Shown here: positions 12,411 to 57,123 of the stretch, in pieces
Numbering within the stretch: position 1 is the stretch's first letter
Layout of the letters: each line of letters starts with the position of its first letter
Source: a phage
Length of the DNA stretch: 64,000 bases
Strand: one strand, 5' to 3'
Sequence record: OZ335959.1
Translations under genes and position numbers: made by a program
The notes under the pieces: model-generated
The model's database searches: none
Seen by the model: only the letters and a program-made list of their open reading frames with translations
What the model was told of the DNA's origin: nothing

Positions 12411-14675
12411 TCATAATTTACAGGATGAACAATCTTCAGCTTTTGGAGTTTCTATTTCATAATCATCAGTACCAGAACCGTCACGGGTATTATGATAATA
12501 GAAATTTTTTCCGCCAAAATACCAAAAATACAAAAGGTCATCAATCATTATTGACATTGGAACCTTTCCTTTTGGAAAAATCTGTGGGTCATAATATGTA
12601 TTCGCTGAAGCTGATTGACACACCCATTTAAGCATAATAGCTACCTGCGTAAGATAAGGTTTATTACCTTTCTTAGCTAATTTCCACGTATAATCATATA
12701 GGTCTATGTTATGCTCAATATTGGGCACGACTTGATTAAAGGAACCCTCTTTTGATTCTTTAACAGAGACTGGTCCACGTGGAGGCTCGATACCGTTTGT
12801 ACTGTTAGAAACTTGGGAAGATGACTCACATGGCATAAGCGCTGATAATGTGCTATTACGGATGCCAAAGAGCTTAAGGTCTTCCCGCAGCGACGACCAG
12901 TCACAAACGTATTTTGGAGCTGCGATTTGGTCAATCTTTTTATTGTACCAGTCAATAGGTAATTCGCCTCGAGACCAACGAGTGTCTGAATAATATTCGC
13001 AAGGTCCTTTTTCTTTGGCGAGCTTAATGGATGCTTTAATGAGTCCATACTGTAATCTCTCGAATAGTTCATGTGTTAAATCGTTAGCATCTTCATAAGA
13101 AGCAAAATTACTTGCCAGCCAAGCTGCATAGTTAGTAACACCTACGCCAAGGTTTCGACGCTTTTTAGCTTTTTCTGCTTCAGGAACCGGATATCCTTGG
13201 TAGTCCAAAAGATTATCAAGAGCACGAACTTGGACTTCTGCCAATTCATTAATTTTATCTTGGTCTTGCCAATCAAAGTTATCTAACACAAATGCAGATA
13301 ACGTGCACAATCCAATTTCAGCATCAGGGCTATTCACATCATTTGTTGGAATAGCAATTTCACAACACAAGTTACTCTGACGAATAGGTGTCTTTTCACG
13401 AATAAATGGCGTATAGTTATTCGTATTATCAATGAACTGTACATAAATCCTTGCTGTTCCTGAGCGTTCAGTCATGAGCAATTCAAACAGTTCACGGGCT
13501 TTAATACGCTTTTTACGAATATTAGGGTCTTTTTCTGCAGCTTCGTATAATTCACGGAAACGGTCTTGGTCTTTAAAATAAGAATAGTAAAGTTCGCCGC
13601 CCATTTCATGCGGACTGAACAAAGTAATGTAATCATTCTTTCCAAATCGTTCCATCATCAAATCATTCAGCTGGACGCCATAATCCATATGACGGATACG
13701 GTTTTCTTCTACACCTTTGTTATTTTTCAAAACGAGAAGATTTTCAACTTCCAAATGCCAAATAGGATAATAAGCAGTAGCAGCGCCGCCACGAATTCCA
13801 CCCTGTGAGCATGATTTAACAGCAGTCTGAAAATGTTTCCAAAAAGGAATAACACCAGTATGGCGTACTTCGCCTGTGCCAATCTTAGAACCTTCGGCAC
13901 GAATCATACCAACGTTAATACCAATTCCAGCACGTTTGGAGATATATTCAACAATTGAAGCGGAAGCCTTATTGATAGACTTTAATGAATCACCTGCTTC
14001 AATAACAACGCATGAACTAAACTGTCGAGTCGGAGTACGGCAACCAGCCATAATAGGAGTTGGTAATGAAATCTGTCGAGTAGATACTGCTTCATAAAAA
14101 CGAATAACATGTTTTAATCTATCAACAGGTTCATCTTGATGTAATGCCATTCCAATAGTCATAAATGCAAACTGTGGAGTTTCATAAATTTGACCAGTGG
14201 TTTTATCTTTAACTAGATATTTTTCTTTTAATTGCATCGCCCCGGAATAAGTAAATTCCATATCCCGTTCGTGCTTAATTTTTGATTCTAAAAATGTAAT
14301 TTCTTCTGCTGAATATTTTGACAACAATTCAGGGTCGTATTTACCTTCATTTACACAGTAAGAAATATGGTCAATAAATGAACGTGGTTCATACTGCCCG
14401 TAAACATGCTTACGAAGAGCGAACATTAAGCAGCGTGCAGCTACATATTGATAATCAGGCTCTTCAACTGAAATAGAATTCGCAGCAGCCTTAATTACAA
14501 TGGTTTGAATGTCATCAGTTGTCATTCCATCACGGAGATATGATTTAATATTTTCATATAATTCATAAGGATCTACAGATGTTCCTTCAGCTGCCCAAGA
14601 TAAAACTTTAATAATTTTTTGCGGATCAAAGCTCTGAGAAACACCACTACTTTTGATAACATTAATTAATTGCAT
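12411..14675 (-). CDS. nrdA: ribonucleotide reductase large subunit
   Basis: 754-aa ORF with ATP-cone N-terminus and C-terminal CxxC tail; class Ia R1. Confidence 0.95.
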   Translation of the reverse strand: MQLINVIKSSGVSQSFDPQKIIKVLSWAAEGTSVDPYELYENIKSYLRDGMTTDDIQTIVIKAAANSISVEEPDYQYVAARCLMFALRKHVYGQYEPRSFIDHISYCVNEGKYDPELLSKYSAEEITFLESKIKHERDMEFTYSGAMQLKEKYLVKDKTTGQIYETPQFAFMTIGMALHQDEPVDRLKHVIRFYEAVSTRQISLPTPIMAGCRTPTRQFSSCVVIEAGDSLKSINKASASIVEYISKRAGIGINVGMIRAEGSKIGTGEVRHTGVIPFWKHFQTAVKSCSQGGIRGGAATAYYPIWHLEVENLLVLKNNKGVEENRIRHMDYGVQLNDLMMERFGKNDYITLFSPHEMGGELYYSYFKDQDRFRELYEAAEKDPNIRKKRIKARELFELLMTERSGTARIYVQFIDNTNNYTPFIREKTPIRQSNLCCEIAIPTNDVNSPDAEIGLCTLSAFVLDNFDWQDQDKINELAEVQVRALDNLLDYQGYPVPEAEKAKKRRNLGVGVTNYAAWLASNFASYEDANDLTHELFERLQYGLIKASIKLAKEKGPCEYYSDTRWSRGELPIDWYNKKIDQIAAPKYVCDWSSLREDLKLFGIRNSTLSALMPCESSSQVSNSTNGIEPPRGPVSVKESKEGSFNQVVPNIEHNIDLYDYTWKLAKKGNKPYLTQVAIMLKWVCQSASANTYYDPQIFPKGKVPMSIMIDDLLYFWYFGGKNFYYHNTRDGSGTDDYEIETPKAEDCSSCKL

Positions 14676-14992
14676 AAGTCCTCAACTTGAAAATCGTCTT
14701 TAAACAATCGGTTAACTATATGAGCTATTATATCACCATGACACGGCTTTGGTTTACATGTGCATCCTAGCCTCATTCCACGTAAAGGCTCTAAATGTGC
14801 TTTAGTTATTTCTCCGGATTTAATTCGACGTATAAAATCTTTTTTGAATAATTCAATGGCAGCCTCCCGGCTGCCAGCATCTTTACCGACGTAATTTCCC
14901 CAAAATGTACCACGGTGAATATTAACATCAAAGTCGGATTTATATTTATTCACTACCTGGCATAGACGGCCCGCGCGGTGATAATTCGTCAT
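14666..14992 (-). CDS. hypothetical protein (108 aa)
   Basis: ORF overlapping nrdA start by 10 nt. Confidence 0.5.
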
Positions 14993-15221
14993 ATTGTTTT
15001 TCCGTTAAAACAGTAATATCATAATAACAGTCAGAAGAAGTTTTAACTGTGGAAATTTTATTATCAAAATACTCACGGGTCATTTTATGAGTATAATATT
15101 TTTTGCCATAAATGATAATAGGCTGATTTGGTCCTGGAACTTCTAACTCACTCGGATTAGGAAGTGTAAAAAGAACTACGCCAGAAGTATCTTTAAATCG
15201 TAAAATCATATATCCTCGCAA
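14946..15221 (-). CDS. hypothetical protein (91 aa)
   Basis: ORF between nrdA and td. Confidence 0.45.
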
Positions 15222-15232
15222 TTAAATTAAAA

Positions 15233-51724: not shown

Positions 51725-52471
51725 TTATCCTCGGATAAGTTTAAAAATTGAACAATTTAGCGGGTATCCTCTTTTTAGTTTAAGTTTATCAATAAAAGAC
51801 AAGTTTTGATACCGCTCTACACCTTGAATAATTTTATCACACATATCATATTGCATTTCTGCTTCTGACAGCTTTTTCACAGTTTTCCAATCAGAGCCTT
51901 TAAGAAGAACGTTCAATTTAACAACTTCAGTGCCTTCTGCTATACGAGAACCATCAATACGAGCTTTGAGTGCTACAATCGTTAGCTTAATGTCAGAGGT
52001 TTGTTTTGATTTAGAAAGCTGAGAAATGTGTTCAATTCGGTTTTCACGTTTTTTCTGTATAGCTTTAATTTGATTATAAGTCTTTTTGATTTTAGCCCAT
52101 TTCTTTTCATCTAAATTTAGTTTATGAACTTTTTTCGCAGATGAACGACCAATTCGCAAAGCAAATAAATCACGCTTTTCAATCAACTCTTCTAAAGTAT
52201 AATCAGAACGAAATGTATTGTACTTTTTCTTTACTGCAATAACATTCCCTTTAATGTATCCAACGTTATTATCAAAACGTTCTAATGATAATTTCTCTCC
52301 TTCAATACGATTATCAAAAGGTTCTCCCGAGTAAGCGCAAACTTTCTGATCTAAAATGTTCTTAATGTAATTGAAGTCTAAGTTAAAATCTTTAGAACGT
52401 CTTTTAGCAGATGCCTGAGTATGCTCTAGACGACGTGTAATTTTACGAATTTGATTTTTAGACAGTTTCAT
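51725..52471 (-). CDS. srd: Srd-like protein (248 aa)
   Basis: Position between dda and modA; Lys-rich ORF. Confidence 0.5.
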   Translation of the reverse strand: MKLSKNQIRKITRRLEHTQASAKRRSKDFNLDFNYIKNILDQKVCAYSGEPFDNRIEGEKLSLERFDNNVGYIKGNVIAVKKKYNTFRSDYTLEELIEKRDLFALRIGRSSAKKVHKLNLDEKKWAKIKKTYNQIKAIQKKRENRIEHISQLSKSKQTSDIKLTIVALKARIDGSRIAEGTEVVKLNVLLKGSDWKTVKKLSEAEMQYDMCDKIIQGVERYQNLSFIDKLKLKRGYPLNCSIFKLIRG

Positions 52472-52587: not shown

Positions 52588-53190
52588 TTATAGATTAAAT
52601 CCTTCAAAATCAAGAGTATAAATAGTGTATGTTGAATACTTTTTATACTCGTATCTATCCGCAATTCTAAATACACTTCCAGCTGGTATCATTACTTCTT
52701 GTTCATCTGAAACTAATTCCATATTACGATAACGATGGCTATCCGGAAATTTAAAACTTGGACTATATTCTTTACAGCGTAGAGCTTTTATAGCATACTC
52801 CTGGAAATTAAACACCATAGGAGCTTTGAATTCAAAAATAACTTGTGTGTTGTATTCTAATCCAGAAGCAAAATGTAGAGCTATATTTTTATCATATGAA
52901 GCTGATGCTACTTTATCAAATGTAATAATATCAATTCCTTGATTTAACACCTGCTTAGTCTCAACTGGAACACCTCTCCAAAGAGGTTTATCGTTTGGAA
53001 CCAAACGAGATTTGATTATTTCATTTAACCAAGAATGATCGTCTGGCTTATTAGTAATACAATGAATTAAAAGTTCAATTTCGGATAAATTAAATCCTTC
53101 AGAAAGTAATTCTTCACGAATAGAAGCACGCACCGATGCATCCATTGATTTGATTTTAAAATCTTTTAATTGCATTGCTGAATATTTCAT
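52588..53190 (-). CDS. modA: ModA mono-ADP-ribosyltransferase
   Basis: 200-aa ORF with R (LWRG), S-x-S and EQEVMIP (E-x-E) ART motifs. Confidence 0.8.
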   Translation of the reverse strand: MKYSAMQLKDFKIKSMDASVRASIREELLSEGFNLSEIELLIHCITNKPDDHSWLNEIIKSRLVPNDKPLWRGVPVETKQVLNQGIDIITFDKVASASYDKNIALHFASGLEYNTQVIFEFKAPMVFNFQEYAIKALRCKEYSPSFKFPDSHRYRNMELVSDEQEVMIPAGSVFRIADRYEYKKYSTYTIYTLDFEGFNL

Positions 53191-53810
53191 TCAACTACCT
53201 CAATATCATACACTTTAAATGTTCCAAATGAATCATGTAATTTTTCTTTTGAAATAGAAGTTATTTTATACTTTCCAATTGGAATCATCCATTCTTGTTC
53301 ACGTACAATCATCATTAAGTTATCAGTACGTTCTGAATCTAATCCATCAGTATCTTCATATGTATACTTAAACTCAGTATTAGGAGAAGAAAGTATAATA
53401 TCACTGATATGGTCAGAATAATTAAAAGCTTTATCAGTTTTTAAGCGAAATATTATTTCAGTGGAATATTCAACATAAGAAAAACCACATGCTGTGTGCA
53501 AACTAGTAGTAAATGAATCTACTCTGTTCGTTGAAAACACTTCTCCAACTTGTAAATCTTTAATGAGTTCTTTTGTCGATTTTGATATACCACGATATAG
53601 CTGATAAGGCGATTTAGTTAAATGCTTTTTAATGATTTTATTCAACTGCCGATGAAGAGCTTCATTCTTTTTGGCTTCCATACATTGCCAAAGAACTGAC
53701 TGTTCAAAGTCAGTAAATTTTTCACAGACCTTTTTATACATATCATATTGAAAATCGACACTTTCAGCTTTTATAGATAACTGTTCAACATCTGCAAGAT
53801 TAATAATCAT
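53187..53810 (-). CDS. modB: ModB mono-ADP-ribosyltransferase
   Basis: 207-aa ORF with LYRG, STS-like and REQEWMIP motifs; paralog of modA. Confidence 0.8.
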   Translation of the reverse strand: MIINLADVEQLSIKAESVDFQYDMYKKVCEKFTDFEQSVLWQCMEAKKNEALHRQLNKIIKKHLTKSPYQLYRGISKSTKELIKDLQVGEVFSTNRVDSFTTSLHTACGFSYVEYSTEIIFRLKTDKAFNYSDHISDIILSSPNTEFKYTYEDTDGLDSERTDNLMMIVREQEWMIPIGKYKITSISKEKLHDSFGTFKVYDIEVVE

Positions 53811-53831
53811 GATAGCCTCCGTATACTTCAG

Positions 53832-53870
53832 AAGCTATCATATCATTGTTAGGAAGGAAAGTAAACAACT
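53832..53870 (-). promoter_or_regulatory. early promoter module (-35 GTTTAC 53861-53866)
   Basis: Conserved module. Confidence 0.45.
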
Positions 53871-53878
53871 TTTTTGAA

Positions 53879-54061
53879 TTATTTTGCCCAGGGAGCCCAG
53901 GGCGGAGGGTCAAGATGGTATGAAGCTAGTTCTTCTAGAAGAGCATCTGAGGCTTCAATTCCATAATTCTGTAATACTATACGGTACTCTTTCTTATAAT
54001 CACTAGAATCATTCTGGATATTCGTAGAATGATTATCTTCTAACATCTCAAATAAATCCAT
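53879..54061 (-). CDS. hypothetical protein (60 aa)
   Basis: ORF; GC-rich 3' end encoding PPPWAPWAK. Confidence 0.4.
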   Translation of the reverse strand: MDLFEMLEDNHSTNIQNDSSDYKKEYRIVLQNYGIEASDALLEELASYHLDPPPWAPWAK

Positions 54062-54069
54062 ATTAATTC

Positions 54070-54540
54070 CTAGCGATAAAAACCAAAATGACGATTAGCT
54101 TCAATAATCTTTCTTTCTTCTTCGGACATTCTCCAGCGTAGTCCAACATCAAAATGAGCCCAGACCATCTTAACAAATGCATTTATATCTTTAATATCTT
54201 CAATAATGAATGTTTTACTTTTATAAGGTTGACTAGCTAATTTAACTTTATCGTCTTCAAACAGGTCAAAAAGACCATATTCATGAGCTCTTTTATAGCC
54301 TTTAATAGTTAAAGCTTCAGAAGAAGAAAACGGTGAATCGGTATTCTGTAAAATATCTTCAGTATGCTTTATAATTAGAATAACATTTTCTGGATATTTT
54401 CTTTCTTTTATATCTTTAATTAAAAAATCCGGATTTTCTGCTAAAGGAATAATTAATGAGCAATTTTTATTAAGTGTATTTACTGATTTACCTTCTTTAG
54501 ACATAAATTCTATTGAATATCGTTTTGCTACTTCAATCAT
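54070..54540 (-). CDS. hypothetical protein (156 aa)
   Basis: ORF. Confidence 0.5.
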
Positions 54541-54693
54541 GTGATTTCCTTTTGCCTACTAATGGACCGTCAGGAATTTTGTTTTCCTGGATATATTTCT
54601 CATTTTCTTCCATCATTTTACTGCCAATTTTAAGAAGCAAATCCATTGCTTCATTTGCTTTAGCTTTAGCCTCTTCTAACGTCATATCTCTGT

Positions 54694-54897
54694 TCACGAT
54701 TTATCCCCATAGATGTCTCTCATCAATTTAAGCGCTGAGCGTTCTAATTTCTTTTCTTTCTCGGCACTAATCATTGATTTCATCCATTCTTCTGATTCAT
54801 TCTGCATTTCTTTATTTGCTTGTTCAACCCAACCATCATCAATATACATTGAGTTTGGTCTATTGAACCATTCAAGCATTTTCTTCAGAACTTTCAT
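54694..54897 (-). CDS. hypothetical protein (67 aa)
   Basis: ORF. Confidence 0.45.
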
Positions 54898-55369
54898 TTG
54901 TTTTACCTAAAATAACAGTAGGAGCATCATCAAATTCATGAATTTTTAGCAAATTTGGATGTAAACTATTCCATACAGAAGAAATAAAGTATGATAAAGC
55001 ATCTTCACTTGCAATTATAAATTTATTTCCTTTATCTATTTTCCAACTATATACTGAATCATACGAATAAAAAGATAAAGGTTTATCATTATATTGTTCT
55101 GCGCTAACATTAATGTATTCTGATTTAGTAAATGCTTCAATTGCTCTAAATGGAATATTTGGTACAGTTTCAATAATACCAATCTTTTTAAGTTTTATTT
55201 CAGCATCTTCTGGAACTGGCATTGAAACGAAATTTTCTACGAGATACATTGGGTCACAATAACCCTTATCAATCATTACTGCTACGGTAATTGGAACGTC
55301 TTTAGCAAACGACAAACTATTACTGCTAATATACATTTCAAACAAAATCGCTTCCATAATTTTCCTCAA
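54872..55369 (-). CDS. hypothetical protein (165 aa, or 161 aa from second ATG; position of T4 mrh)
   Basis: ORF. Confidence 0.5.
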
Positions 55370-55704
55370 TCACAAGATGTAGATGAACAACTAGAATCAC
55401 AAGAACTTCCACATGAATCGCCCGTCCATACATGAACAGGAACATTAGTGTCATATGAATCAGAACTAGACTGTGTATTCTGCGTATTAGATGATGTAGG
55501 TATTGACCAGCGCCAAGGATTTTTATAATATTCCTGGGCTTCTTCATAAGTCATAGTAACTGCTTCTACTGTTCCATCTCCCATATAAACATATTCAACT
55601 ACAGTTAAAGGAAGGTAGTCATTTGAAATAGGAACTACACCTTCTCCGGGAGTTGTAGAGAAAAAATCCGTAAAGAAACTTTTAAACCAATTAAAGATAA
55701 ACAT
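55366..55704 (-). CDS. hypothetical protein with Ser/Cys-rich C-terminal tail (112 aa)
   Basis: C-terminus [18 protein letters not shown]. Confidence 0.5.
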
Positions 55705-55916
55705 TACAAAAAGCCTCTTTGAAATTCGACTCTTTGAAATCCACCCCAGTCAGTGTATCGCATTTCAGCATTGAACTCGACTGAACCATCTGCATGCATC
55801 ATGAATGAATGCGTGACGATATCACAATCCCAGCTTTTCATACCCCATTTATCAGAGATAGCTTTATCAAGAACCTTCTGGAGGTCTTCATTTGGTTTAA
55901 TCCAACGATTTAACAT
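55704..55916 (-). CDS. hypothetical protein (70 aa)
   Basis: ORF downstream of promoter module. Confidence 0.5.
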   Translation of the reverse strand: MLNRWIKPNEDLQKVLDKAISDKWGMKSWDCDIVTHSFMMHADGSVEFNAEMRYTDWGGFQRVEFQRGFL

Positions 55917-55938: not shown

Positions 55939-55975
55939 TTCTATTATACCATACTTGTTTTGGAAAGTAAACCGG
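55939..55975 (-). promoter_or_regulatory. early promoter module (-35 GTTTAC 55967-55972)
   Basis: Conserved module. Confidence 0.45.
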
Positions 55976-55982
55976 TAAAATG

Positions 55983-56009
55983 AAAAAAGGACTCCCGAAG
56001 GAGTCCTTG
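55983..56009 (-). terminator. rho-independent terminator after soc (GGACUCC-CGAA-GGAGUCC plus U-run)
   Basis: Identical hairpin to 2874-2891. Confidence 0.55.
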
Positions 56010-56014
56010 AATTA

Positions 56015-56260
56015 TTAACCACCAGTTACTTTCCACAAATCTTCGTTTGCAGTAATCCATGCATCACGTTGATTTTCTTCGTATACAGTAGTATATGCTG
56101 CTTTTTCTGAAGGGAATGTCTGGTAATGAGCGCCAGAAATTTTGTGAACGTCAGAATAAAGAGGGAAAGCTACAGAAATTTCCTTTCCTTCAATTTTCTT
56201 ATTTCCATCTAATTTCTGCTCAAATGTTTTAATATTAACATAACCGCGAGTACTAGCCAT
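56015..56260 (-). CDS. soc: Soc small outer capsid protein
   Basis: 81-aa ORF MASTRGYVNIKTF..., matching T4 Soc; late promoter upstream. Confidence 0.9.
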   Translation of the reverse strand: MASTRGYVNIKTFEQKLDGNKKIEGKEISVAFPLYSDVHKISGAHYQTFPSEKAAYTTVYEENQRDAWITANEDLWKVTGG

Positions 56261-56290
56261 GTAATTCTCCTTTTATTTAAATTACATGAC

Positions 56291-56298
56291 TATTTATA
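56291..56298 (-). promoter_or_regulatory. late promoter TATAAATA upstream of soc
   Basis: Exact TATAAATA on minus strand 30 nt upstream of soc ATG. Confidence 0.6.
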
Positions 56299-56332
56299 AT
56301 AAATTCTCACAGCTTTTAAGCCGTCGTTTATA

Positions 56333-56851
56333 TTAATAACCTCGGTCTTGACGAGCGAAGTTTTCAGCATTTTTCAGATAATAAAGTTTAAAGATTTCTT
56401 CAGCCGTAAGACCGAGACCTTGGAACATGTTCAGAACGAAATGAAGAATATCAATCATTTCGAATTTAATTTCCAACTGGTCTTGTGGAGATAAGTCAGT
56501 AATCAGAGTTTCACGACGTTCACCGTGTTGCGACTTCCAAGGCTTCCATACAGCAGATGCATCTTTTTCGCCATTGCTCATACCACCAAGAGAAGTCAGA
56601 AGTTCGCGGAATTCATCATCAATATAATCTTTCTGATTACGCAGCCAATCAACAACTTCACCTGCAGTAGCCAAATCATCAGGATGACGGTTATATTCAG
56701 GTTTATCTTTAGCTAAACGAACTTGCAGAGATTTCTGCATATCAAGCATAACCTGCAGCGGGTCTTTTTCATCACCGAGAATATCCCAGTATTCATTTTG
56801 AGCTTTATCAGCGCCTTCAATTAGTTGACTACATTCGTTAAAGTATGCCAT
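56333..56851 (-). CDS. 56: dCTP pyrophosphatase (dCTPase/dUTPase) gp56
   Basis: 172 aa from MAYFNE (track ORF runs 93 nt further upstream); AAGGA RBS; MazG-like. Confidence 0.85.
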   Translation of the reverse strand: MAYFNECSQLIEGADKAQNEYWDILGDEKDPLQVMLDMQKSLQVRLAKDKPEYNRHPDDLATAGEVVDWLRNQKDYIDDEFRELLTSLGGMSNGEKDASAVWKPWKSQHGERRETLITDLSPQDQLEIKFEMIDILHFVLNMFQGLGLTAEEIFKLYYLKNAENFARQDRGY

Positions 56852-56922
56852 TATTTTTCCTTTCAATTCATGGGTTAGTAGATTAATTATACAATAAATA
56901 TATAAAGCAATAAGGAGGACAT

Positions 56923-57123
56923 ATGGTACAAAAATTAATGGCACTTGTTAATGCCATAAAAGGTAATAAAAAACGTATAGCTTTTACTATTTCTGCTATG
57001 GTAGGAATTTTACTCTGGAATTTTGTTTTATCACCAATTGCTATTGCTCATGGTGTTAATATTCCGGTAATTACTCTTGATACATTCGTAGATTTAGCAT
57101 TTGCTTTGGTTGGGTTAATTTAA
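56923..57123 (+). CDS. small double-TM membrane protein (66 aa), convergent with flanking genes
   Basis: Plus-strand ORF with AAGGAGGA SD 4 nt upstream of ATG; two hydrophobic helices; stop overlaps gene 61 stop. Confidence 0.5.
   Translation: MVQKLMALVNAIKGNKKRIAFTISAMVGILLWNFVLSPIAIAHGVNIPVITLDTFVDLAFALVGLI

Follow-up and report, generated by a model that had tools for sequence, protein, structure and literature searches.

The genome in the window, a stretch of 64,000 nucleotides of phage DNA (sequence record OZ335959.1), is an ordinary copy of a Tequatrovirus (T4-like) genome. Positions 53879-55916 on the minus strand contain seven tightly packed genes that overlap or abut one another. 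They fill the interval separating soc from modB and follow the soc terminator and a promoter of the T4 early type. The block and its surroundings comprise the following features:

51725-52471: srd, 1.4 kb downstream of the block
53187-53810, minus strand: modB, downstream neighbor; 96.1% amino acid identity to T4 ModB
53808-53865, minus strand: modB-proximal early promoter and RNA hairpin; TTTACT (53865-53860), 17-nt spacer, TATGAT (53842-53837)
53879-54061, minus strand: modA.2, 60 aa, pI 4.3; PHROG 1647 (E = 1e-30); dN/dS 0.14
54070-54540, minus strand: modA.3, 156 aa; Pfam PF24070 T4_MRH (E = 1e-38)
54533-54697, minus strand: modA.4, 54 aa, beginning with a GTG that overlaps the stop codon of srh; PHROG 2681 (E = 2e-37); dN/dS 0.07
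54694-54897, minus strand: srh, 67 aa; PHROG 2441 (E = 6e-41); dN/dS 0.05
54872-55357, minus strand: mrh, 161 aa, start codon ATG at 55357; Pfam PF24070 T4_MRH (E = 4e-42)
55366-55704, minus strand: mrh.1, 112 aa; Pfam PF23836 DUF7206 (E = 6e-28); dN/dS 0.10
55704-55916, minus strand: mrh.2, 70 aa; PHROG 1873 (E = 4e-31); dN/dS 0.16
55943-55972, minus strand: early sigma-70 promoter of the T4 type; GTTTACT, 17-nt spacer, TG-extended TATAAT
55987-56008, minus strand: soc intrinsic terminator from a terminator scan; AAGGACTCC-TTCG-GGAGTCCTT followed by a U-run, 9-bp stem
56015-56260, minus strand: soc, upstream neighbor; 93.8% amino acid identity

An early operon of T4

The T4 genes modA.2, modA.3, modA.4, srh, mrh, mrh.1, and mrh.2 all have one-to-one counterparts in the block, with order and strand retained. 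The gene set, order, and orientation are identical to those of T4 positions 13198-15232 (NC_000866; old names dda.6-dda.9 and so on), and the flanks agree as well, with soc upstream, modB and modA downstream, and the early promoter and terminator shared. Amino acid identity to T4 ranges from 57 to 100% across the seven proteins, whose lengths are equal within 2 aa. Srh is 100% identical to its T4 counterpart, and ModA.2, ModA.3, ModA.4, and Mrh.1 are 95 to 98% identical (97.3% for Mrh.1), whereas Mrh and Mrh.2 reach just 76.4% and 57%, respectively. The block is the orthologue of the T4 early non-essential operon mrh.2-mrh.1-mrh-srh-modA.4-modA.3-modA.2. Outside the block, the window differs from T4 in lacking segF and dam.

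The initial annotation described the interval as six unknown ORFs of 60 to 165 aa without recognizable motifs. The run of consecutive minus-strand ORFs between modB and soc is as described, but the genes number seven; the one overlooked, modA.4, is a real gene and is conserved in JS98. The ORF of 165 aa is a mechanical product of a TTG codon, and the ATG annotated in T4 and its relatives (55357), which follows GAGGA, gives a protein of 161 aa. Motifs are present in that two of the ORFs match the Pfam family T4_MRH, one matches DUF7206, and all seven match PHROG families. The block is, moreover, already known: in T4, the mapping and naming of its genes, and the demonstration that they are dispensable, go back to the 1990s.

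Across 12 genomes, dN/dS is between 0.05 and 0.29 for all seven genes, indicating purifying selection. These ratios bear on the possibility that certain small ORFs arose by chance in AT-rich DNA and are not genes, an idea to which four proteins of at most 70 aa without a Pfam family and the absence of Mrh.1 from the detected T4 proteome (PMC9697503 supplements) lend some weight. That idea is refuted for practical purposes, and its probability is negligible, given also the PHROG assignments, the presence of homologues in other genera for every gene except mrh, and the detection as protein of the T4 orthologues of every gene but mrh.1 (PMC9697503 supplements). Sequence searches of the PDB with all seven proteins returned no significant relative, NCBIfam profiles gave only sub-threshold noise, and Rfam had no match over the whole window. 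A literature search on modA.2, modA.3, modA.4, mrh.1, and mrh.2 returned almost nothing relevant. The label "molybdenum ABC transporter" carried by modA.2, modA.3, and modA.4 in databases is an error arising from a name collision.

Mrh.1 has an aromatic N terminus, a small conserved core, and an acidic tail rich in Ser, Thr, and Cys. It matches DUF7206 with 97.9 bits over model positions 1 to 107 of 107, above the gathering threshold of 25.6 bits, and was found by tblastn in 502 phage records. A four-Cys metal site in the tail was considered and rejected, as JS98 retains just two of the cysteines. The resemblance of the Ser/Cys tail to FxLD lanthipeptide precursors in NCBIfam (E = 0.034, 14 bits against a cutoff of 30 bits) is compositional and was likewise set aside.

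The promoter that the initial annotation placed at 55939-55975 is borne out: its -35 box (TTTACT, 55971-55966) and -10 box (TATAAT, 55948-55943) agree with the consensus at 10 of 12 positions, the best sigma-70 match in the region, and both boxes are invariant in 12/12 Tequatroviruses. The soc terminator also exists, with its 9-bp stem and U-run, and in a 12-genome alignment the stem is preserved by compensatory changes (GGAATCC/GGATTCC in RB33 and JLBYU31). The claim that the block ends at this terminator has the direction reversed, since the terminator lies upstream in the direction of transcription and the block begins after it. Downstream, the block is bounded by the modB promoter and hairpin and has no clean terminator, and a scan for MotA boxes of middle promoters on the minus (coding) strand inside the block found none. 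Transcription by the host RNA polymerase with sigma-70 would begin at the early promoter just past the soc terminator and run through all seven genes towards modB. In T4, all seven genes are represented in early RNA (PMC9697503 supplements), and modA, modB, srh, and mrh are preceded by early promoters that are DksA sensitive (PMC6024815). The T4 orthologues lie in the dispensable 39-56 (delta-12) region beside srd, modA, and modB (PMC6070864), and viable deletions of mrh.2 have been reported (PMC8262927). Early transcription and dispensability are established for T4 itself.

Conservation and divergent alleles

All 12 of the sampled Tequatroviruses contain the same seven genes, and of 733 phage records that match the block, 498 span 80% or more of it. 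The expectation that the interval is hypervariable is supported by the presence/absence comparison of T4-like genomes only between genera, where gene content varies; within Tequatrovirus, the content is constant. The plastic spots are the soc-56 and 56-61 intervals adjoining the block. The seven genes are conserved, yet they are accessory and have no housekeeping role.

Variation within the block is concentrated in mrh and the center of mrh.2, which occur as sharply bounded divergent alleles within surrounding DNA that is 95 to 99% identical to that of T4. DNA identity to T4 is 80 to 88% in mrh, the fastest-evolving gene of the block (dN/dS 0.29), and 52 to 76% in mrh.2. In alignments of Mrh.2 the ends are conserved and a central segment is swapped. 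Searches with tblastn found 121 records at least 95% identical and 602 less than 60% identical, which define two allele classes across approximately 740 genomes; the allele in the window belongs to the minority class, together with those of Sfk20, W143, RB33, and JLBYU31.

Under one alternative, at least one of the seven proteins inhibits, or is sensed by, bacterial immunity such as restriction, abortive infection, or toxin-antitoxin systems, and the divergence of mrh and mrh.2 would reflect an arms race. Consistent with such a role, the products are small, acidic, and early and are encoded in a dispensable region, the divergence in mrh and mrh.2 is bounded, mrh.2 falls into two classes, and mrh has the highest dN/dS of the block. 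However, dN/dS stays below 0.3 throughout, and dS in mrh.2 is approximately 1, which suggests that the alleles are old and have been exchanged by recombination, not that positive selection acted recently; the neighboring genes soc and 56 are also as mosaic as mrh and mrh.2. PADLOC gave no matches, which is a weak test as its library consists of defense rather than anti-defense proteins, and the PHROG and NCBIfam annotations name no such role. The searchable literature, T4 counter-defense papers included, contains no report of one. Neither membership in a characterized anti-defense family nor a counter-defense phenotype was found by PADLOC, PHROG, NCBIfam, PDB, or literature searches. The description of the block as a candidate anti-defense island thus gained no support from PADLOC, PHROGs, or the literature, and we regard that function as improbable.

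Srh, Mrh, and the sigma-32 connection

The only genetic phenotypes described for the seven genes, in the T4 studies as they are cited in later papers, are those of mrh and srh, for which effects on late transcription are reported both at 42 °C and in rpoH (sigma-32) mutants (Frazier and Mosig 1990 and Mosig et al. 1998, cited in PMC6070864 and PMC8076793). Mrh is the counterpart of the T4 protein that "modulates rpoH," and the T4 srh gene, which in the window shares 26 nt with the 3' end of mrh, is labeled in GenBank as a "postulated decoy of sigma-32."

Taken literally, the GenBank label would make Srh a structural mimic of RpoH region 4.2 that competes for RNA polymerase core, DnaK/DnaJ, or FtsH. 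Pairwise comparisons are consistent with the label: BLASTP, in a single comparison, pairs Srh residues 23 to 60 with RpoH residues 244 to 279 (32% identity, E = 7e-4), and a second short colinear match pairs Srh 5 to 13 with RpoH 143 to 151. The Smith-Waterman score of 58 compares with 30.7 ± 5.2 for shuffled sequences and was equaled by 3 of 5,000 shuffles, and the Srh of JS98 scores 57, equaled by 0 of 3,000. Both Srh and RpoH contain Lys/Glu-rich helices, however, which inflates such scores. The Srh of Gelderlandvirus, the most distant examined, carries no signal (score 33, p = 0.22), the profile of the Srh family aligned to RpoH with hhalign has a probability of 1.9% over 20 columns, and no Pfam sigma-70 region 4 match was obtained at E ≤ 1. 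An AlphaFold2 model of Srh (pLDDT 76.8), which constitutes moderate evidence given its shallow alignment, consists of one unbroken helix from residue 21 to 63 with no helix-turn-helix, and Foldseek returned no PDB match to it. The decoy label therefore rests on short pairwise similarity and receives no support from the profile comparison or the structure model; we consider a literal decoy unlikely.

Mrh and ModA.3 are, as judged from sequence, paralogues within the Pfam family T4_MRH. Their scores against the full-length model are 143.8 bits for Mrh and 132.5 bits for ModA.3, compared with a gathering threshold of 24.4 bits, and the two proteins share 24% identity in pairwise alignment (E = 0.012). 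ModA.3 is the member of the family that is retained across T4-like genera. The family is very narrow, forming 13 clusters at 50% identity in an exhaustive HMM search of 1.84 billion proteins, and a word-indexed homologue search went no further than close relatives, with identities of 73% or more for Mrh and 66% or more for Srh. No deep alignment can be obtained from a family confined to 13 clusters, and the AlphaFold2 model of Mrh from a 22-sequence alignment of Mrh and ModA.3 relatives was unusable (mean pLDDT 36.7). Mrh of T4 is soluble and migrates as an assembly in the megadalton range (PMC8076793). The same paper mentions a 3.3 Å cryo-EM structure of Mrh as "data not shown"; literature and PDB searches found no later publication or entry.

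Two other T4 proteins provide a comparison. AsiA, the anti-sigma-70 protein, and Srd, a postulated decoy of sigma-70/sigma-S, are likewise small early proteins of the same dispensable region with proposed host sigma-factor targets. For AsiA, the fold and the site bound on sigma-70 region 4 are defined, whereas Srh and Mrh have no established partner, fold, or site. A search for structural or remote-homology links between the proteins of the block and transcription proteins found none, the Pfam sigma models missing Srh among them.

ModA.2, the Mod enzymes, and the leader of modB

ModA.2 was found in 990 phage records, including T4-like phages of Klebsiella and Enterobacter, and its C-terminal motif DPPPW(A/S)PW is invariant in five genera in which overall identity is 33 to 58%. 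The order of an Mrh-family gene, ModA.2, and a Mod ADP-ribosyltransferase recurs in approximately 35 T4-like contigs. Among 36 IMG/VR contigs, a Mod-family ADP-ribosyltransferase begins directly downstream of ModA.2 in 35/35 evaluable loci and an Mrh-family ORF ends directly upstream of it in 34 of the 35, while just 17 contain Srh and just 6 a second Mrh paralogue. The same order is shared by JS98, RB69, Gelderlandvirus, and one Klebsiella phage. It is possible that ModA.2 and a ModA.3-like protein constitute an accessory module of the adjacent enzyme or enzymes, ModB and ModA, acting as a regulator, target adaptor, or antidote. In this reading, the DPPPWxPW tail would be a docking peptide and the remaining five genes would be lineage-specific additions. 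The retained order and the invariant motif are consistent with such a module, as is the report that modA alone is toxic on expression (PMC6070864). Synteny is broad in T4-like genomes, however, which makes adjacency to srd, modA, modB, or a Mod enzyme weak evidence, and the IMG/VR loci were fetched through the DPPPWxPW motif itself, so that its invariance in those loci is circular. A hairpin and a separate promoter in front of modB also uncouple the translation of modB from the upstream genes, contrary to strict co-expression. An accessory module of this kind is accordingly doubtful.

The hairpin (53842-53808) overlaps the modB-proximal promoter and has a predicted folding energy of -21.9 kcal/mol (z = -4.0). 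Its 5' arm is formed by the -10 box and its 3' arm by the Shine-Dalgarno sequence and AUG of modB. Promoter and hairpin are nearly invariant in 12 Tequatroviruses. Across genera, a MAFFT/RNAalifold comparison found 3 of 14 pairs changed on both sides in a poor alignment, and reliance was therefore placed on independent single-sequence folds, in which JS98, RB69, and a Klebsiella phage have an equivalent design built from other stem sequences. In transcripts that read through from upstream, the hairpin would mask the ribosome-binding site of modB, leaving transcripts from the modB promoter as the main source of its translation. The T4 genes e, soc, 49, and I-TevI are controlled in this manner, in that an RNA hairpin prevents their translation from long transcripts begun upstream. 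The modB leader resembles them in pairing the proximal -10 region with the Shine-Dalgarno sequence and AUG, such that only transcripts from the proximal promoter would be translatable; it differs in that the hairpin concerns the neighbor of the block rather than the block itself. A literature search found no description of such a hairpin for modB.

The cluster lies among early genes (srd, modA, and modB) whose products act on the transcription machinery of the host. From this location, the block most likely encodes accessory proteins for host takeover that adjust the transcription and heat-shock apparatus of the host. The proposal of host takeover in the initial annotation fits the T4 record, as far as that record is summarized in the cited papers, with respect to the dispensable early region, the detected proteins, and the effects of mrh and srh on late transcription. 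At a low probability, the Mrh-family protein and ModA.2 may in addition form a functional module with the Mod ADP-ribosyltransferase, and the divergent mrh and mrh.2 alleles may mark proteins that are sensed by or counter host immunity.

The block itself offers little that is new; its value lies in seven early proteins, conserved and expressed, of the best-studied phage, for whose mechanisms the comparative patterns narrow the search. The first places to look are the order of the Mrh-family gene, ModA.2, and the Mod enzyme, the tail of ModA.2, the divergent patches in mrh and mrh.2, and the modB hairpin.

The modB-soc interval and its seven genes

The block between modB and soc (window 53879-55916, minus strand) is a gene cluster that is well known, and named, in T4. 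A 4-kb query around it matched 752 phage records, nearly all Tequatrovirus, the best being Shigella phage Sfk20 (99.4%), and the T4 reference annotation lists mrh.2, mrh.1, mrh, srh, modA.4, modA.3, and modA.2 in this interval. UniProt-annotated relatives bear matching T4 names, e.g., "7.0 kDa protein in modB-mrh intergenic region." The minus-strand genes and flanks described in the initial annotation are real (ModB and Soc are 96.1% and 93.8% identical to those of T4), but there are seven genes rather than six; modA.4, at 54 aa, was missed because it was under the 60-aa floor applied there; the length of 165 aa given for mrh corresponds to a longer TTG frame, whereas the ATG preceded by GAGGA gives 161 aa.

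Genes of the block (ORF list and sequence)
53879-54061, minus strand: modA.2, 60 aa
54070-54540, minus strand: modA.3, 156 aa
54533-54697, minus strand: modA.4, 54 aa, GTG start
54694-54897, minus strand: srh, 67 aa
54872-55357, minus strand: mrh, 161 aa, with the ATG that follows GAGGA as start
55366-55704, minus strand: mrh.1, 112 aa
55704-55916, minus strand: mrh.2, 70 aa

The genes overlap or abut in the manner of a single operon, with spacings between -26 and +8 nt. Orthologues were taken from 11 Tequatroviruses (Sfk20, W143, T4, RB33, JLBYU31, BCPShso_001, T2, O157 typing phage 7, HY03, teqdroes, and bov10K1), making 12 genomes with the window, each of which carries intact copies of all seven genes. 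Nei-Gojobori dN/dS values over these genomes (modA.2, 0.14; modA.3, 0.22; modA.4, 0.07; srh, 0.05; mrh, 0.29; mrh.1, 0.10; mrh.2, 0.16) are similar to those of modA (0.07), modB (0.12), soc (0.28), and gene 56 (0.17). In time-resolved omics of T4, all seven genes give early RNA and six of the seven proteins were detected, Mrh.1 being the exception (PMC9697503, supplementary tables).

Name-collision errors are widespread in the GenBank records matched by DNA search (H1 to H71): modA.2, modA.3, and modA.4 are labeled [quoted passage not shown] one record gives srh as "S-ribosylhomocysteinase," and one other gives mrh.2 as "Ras-binding domain 2 of RGS12." Pfam and NCBIfam gave no sequence support for any of these labels.

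Promoters, terminator, and the modB leader

The early promoter proposed at 55939-55975 is borne out: TTTACT, a 17-nt spacer, and a TG-extended TATAAT agree with the consensus at 10 of 12 positions, no other site in the region matching as well, and both boxes are invariant across the 12 Tequatroviruses. The soc terminator (56008-55987) also exists, its stem being preserved through compensatory substitutions in RB33 and JLBYU31, but transcription of the block runs away from it: the terminator is upstream, and the block starts after it instead of ending there, as had been supposed. No clean terminator was found at the downstream end, where modB's own promoter and leader are located instead.

53865-53860 (TTTACT), 17-nt spacer, 53842-53837 (TATGAT), minus strand: second early promoter, between modA.2 and modB
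53808-53865 region, minus strand: modB leader hairpin, -21.9 kcal/mol, z = -4.0

The 5' arm of this hairpin is the -10 box of the promoter, and its 3' arm contains the modB Shine-Dalgarno sequence and AUG. Hairpins of like design but with different stem sequences occur upstream of the first mod gene in JS98 (z = -3.1; locus L005:1505-1600, minus strand), RB69 (z = -4.1; L006:4925-4998, plus strand), and a Klebsiella T4-like phage (z = -2.3; L008:3685-3775, plus strand); none was found in the Gelderlandvirus locus. Hairpins of this type are known in T4 at e, soc, 49, and I-TevI. By analogy with these cases, the hairpin probably blocks translation of modB from transcripts reading through from the mrh.2 promoter; modB would then not be made from such transcripts, which would place the functional end of the block at 53879.

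Conservation within the genus and variation between genera

At the DNA level, at least 80% of the block is covered in 498 of 733 matching records; contrary to the hypervariability suggested in the initial annotation, the block is not hypervariable within the genus. The variable Tequatrovirus spots are the adjoining soc-56 gap, which holds soc.1, soc.2 or segF, or nothing, and the 56-61 gap, occupied by dam or else by a small plus-strand ORF among the relatives compared. Compared with T4, the window is without segF and dam (region 56261-57123), the latter being replaced by a 66-aa plus-strand ORF (56923-57123), which many relatives list as "hypothetical" and RB33 as "dam.1." A MotA-box-like middle promoter (TGCTTTA, 11 nt, TATAAT; 56886-56909, minus strand) is located shortly before the ATG of gene 56 (56851), within a longer mechanical GTG ORF; the T4 annotation places the oriA primer-transcript region here.

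From modA to mrh.1 the window is 95 to 99% identical to T4 DNA, save for sharply bounded patches; the divergent patches are mrh (80 to 88%) and the center of mrh.2 (52 to 76%). Mrh.2 falls into two allele classes (the window type at 95% identity or more in 121 records, below 60% in 602) with common ends and a different central stretch of ~27 residues. The mrh.2 dS of ~1 indicates that the alleles are old and have been exchanged by recombination, and does not suggest positive selection in the recent past. Across the 12 genomes, soc and gene 56 are as mosaic as mrh.2 (mean amino acid identities of 0.75 and 0.85, with minima of 0.41 and 0.70, respectively), so the patch beginning in mrh.2 may be part of a larger recombination-prone segment through soc and 56 (56015-56851).

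Between genera, the content of the block varies. JS98 is without mrh. The RB69 block comprises mrh.2, a pair of unique ORFs, an Mrh-family gene that is split, modA.2, and, before modB, the further unique ORF020. In Gelderlandvirus, the interval contains a small ORF, srh, a single gene of the Mrh family, and an ORF resembling ModA.2. In the Klebsiella phage, a small ORF, a single gene of the Mrh family, and modA.2 precede just one Mod enzyme (ADP-ribosyltransferase). Record counts by tblastn were 990 for ModA.2, 743 for Mrh.2, 603 for Srh, and 502 for Mrh.1. The RB69 half-ORFs (L006:4120-4329 and L006:4400-4585; 69 and 61 aa) correspond in alignment to the two halves, N- and C-terminal, of a relative that is intact at 154 aa (protein P0128), and the split reflects either a pseudogene or a frameshift introduced in sequencing. 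RB33 carries a ~90-bp insertion or duplication between srh and mrh (L009:2394-2510) that yields an extra 38-aa ORF, RB33_025, like the start of Srh (P0168; 68% identity over 55% of Srh).

ModA.2 ends in DPPPW(A/S)PW, invariant in five genera at an overall identity of only 33 to 58%. Among 36 IMG/VR loci retrieved through this motif itself, 35 were evaluable: a Mod-family ADP-ribosyltransferase lies directly downstream of ModA.2 in 35/35 and the end of an Mrh-family ORF directly upstream in 34/35, with Srh in 17 loci and a second Mrh paralogue only in the 6 loci from Tequatrovirus. The unit that stays constant is thus an Mrh-family gene, ModA.2, and a Mod enzyme, the other genes being lineage-specific additions. 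For a functional link of the Mrh-family gene and ModA.2 to the Mod enzyme, adjacency in syntenic T4-like genomes is weak evidence, and we therefore offer the link only as a rival or novel reading.

Protein families and possible functions

The block proteins had been described as lacking recognizable motifs, yet all seven match PHROG families (of unknown function), Mrh.1 matches DUF7206, and Mrh (E = 4e-42) and ModA.3 (E = 1e-38) both match Pfam T4_MRH, making them paralogues despite a pairwise identity of only 24%. An exhaustive search of 1.84 billion cluster representatives with an Mrh and ModA.3 profile found only 13 clusters, and the family is therefore confined to T4-like phages. PADLOC, NCBIfam, and PDB searches gave no significant match. 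Mrh.1 has a strikingly aromatic N-terminus and a Ser/Thr/Cys/Asp-rich C-terminal tail (55366-55430), invariant in 11 of 12 Tequatroviruses save for T/A at the second position; there is a further Ser-to-Gly change in bov10K1, and of the four cysteines JS98 retains only two.

Srh residues 23 to 60 align with region 4.2 of Escherichia coli RpoH (residues 244 to 279; 32% identity; single-comparison E = 7e-4), with a second short colinear match (Srh 5 to 13 with RpoH 143 to 151). The Smith-Waterman score of 58 was equaled in only 3 of 5,000 shuffles, and JS98 Srh behaves likewise; Gelderlandvirus Srh gave no signal. Comparison of a Srh-family profile with RpoH gave a probability of only 1.9%, no Pfam sigma model matched Srh, and the AlphaFold model (pLDDT, 76.8) consists of a short helix and one uninterrupted 43-residue helix, with no helix-turn-helix and no Foldseek match in the PDB. 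A literal region 4 mimic is thus unsupported, and the "sigma-32 decoy" label remains a postulate.

Produced recombinantly, Mrh of T4 is soluble and runs as a "large megadalton complex," and the same paper refers, as data not shown, to a cryo-EM structure at 3.3 Å (PMC8076793); our literature search found no follow-up paper, and there is no PDB entry. DksA-responsive early promoters lie upstream of modA, modB, srh, and mrh (PMC6024815), and phages that escaped CRISPR through deletions of 35 to 526 bp at a protospacer in mrh.2 remain viable (PMC8262927). According to PMC6070864, which cites Mosig et al. 1998 and Frazier and Mosig 1990, the T4 region lies inside the dispensable delta-12 (39-56) deletion, modA, srd, and 69 are reportedly toxic if expressed alone, and mrh and srh reportedly influence late transcription of T4 both at 42 °C and in some rpoH mutants. 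No anti-defense role for the block genes is described in the literature searched, and that part of the initial interpretation is unsupported; host takeover by the block is plausible, given the old genetic support for two of its genes, mrh and srh.
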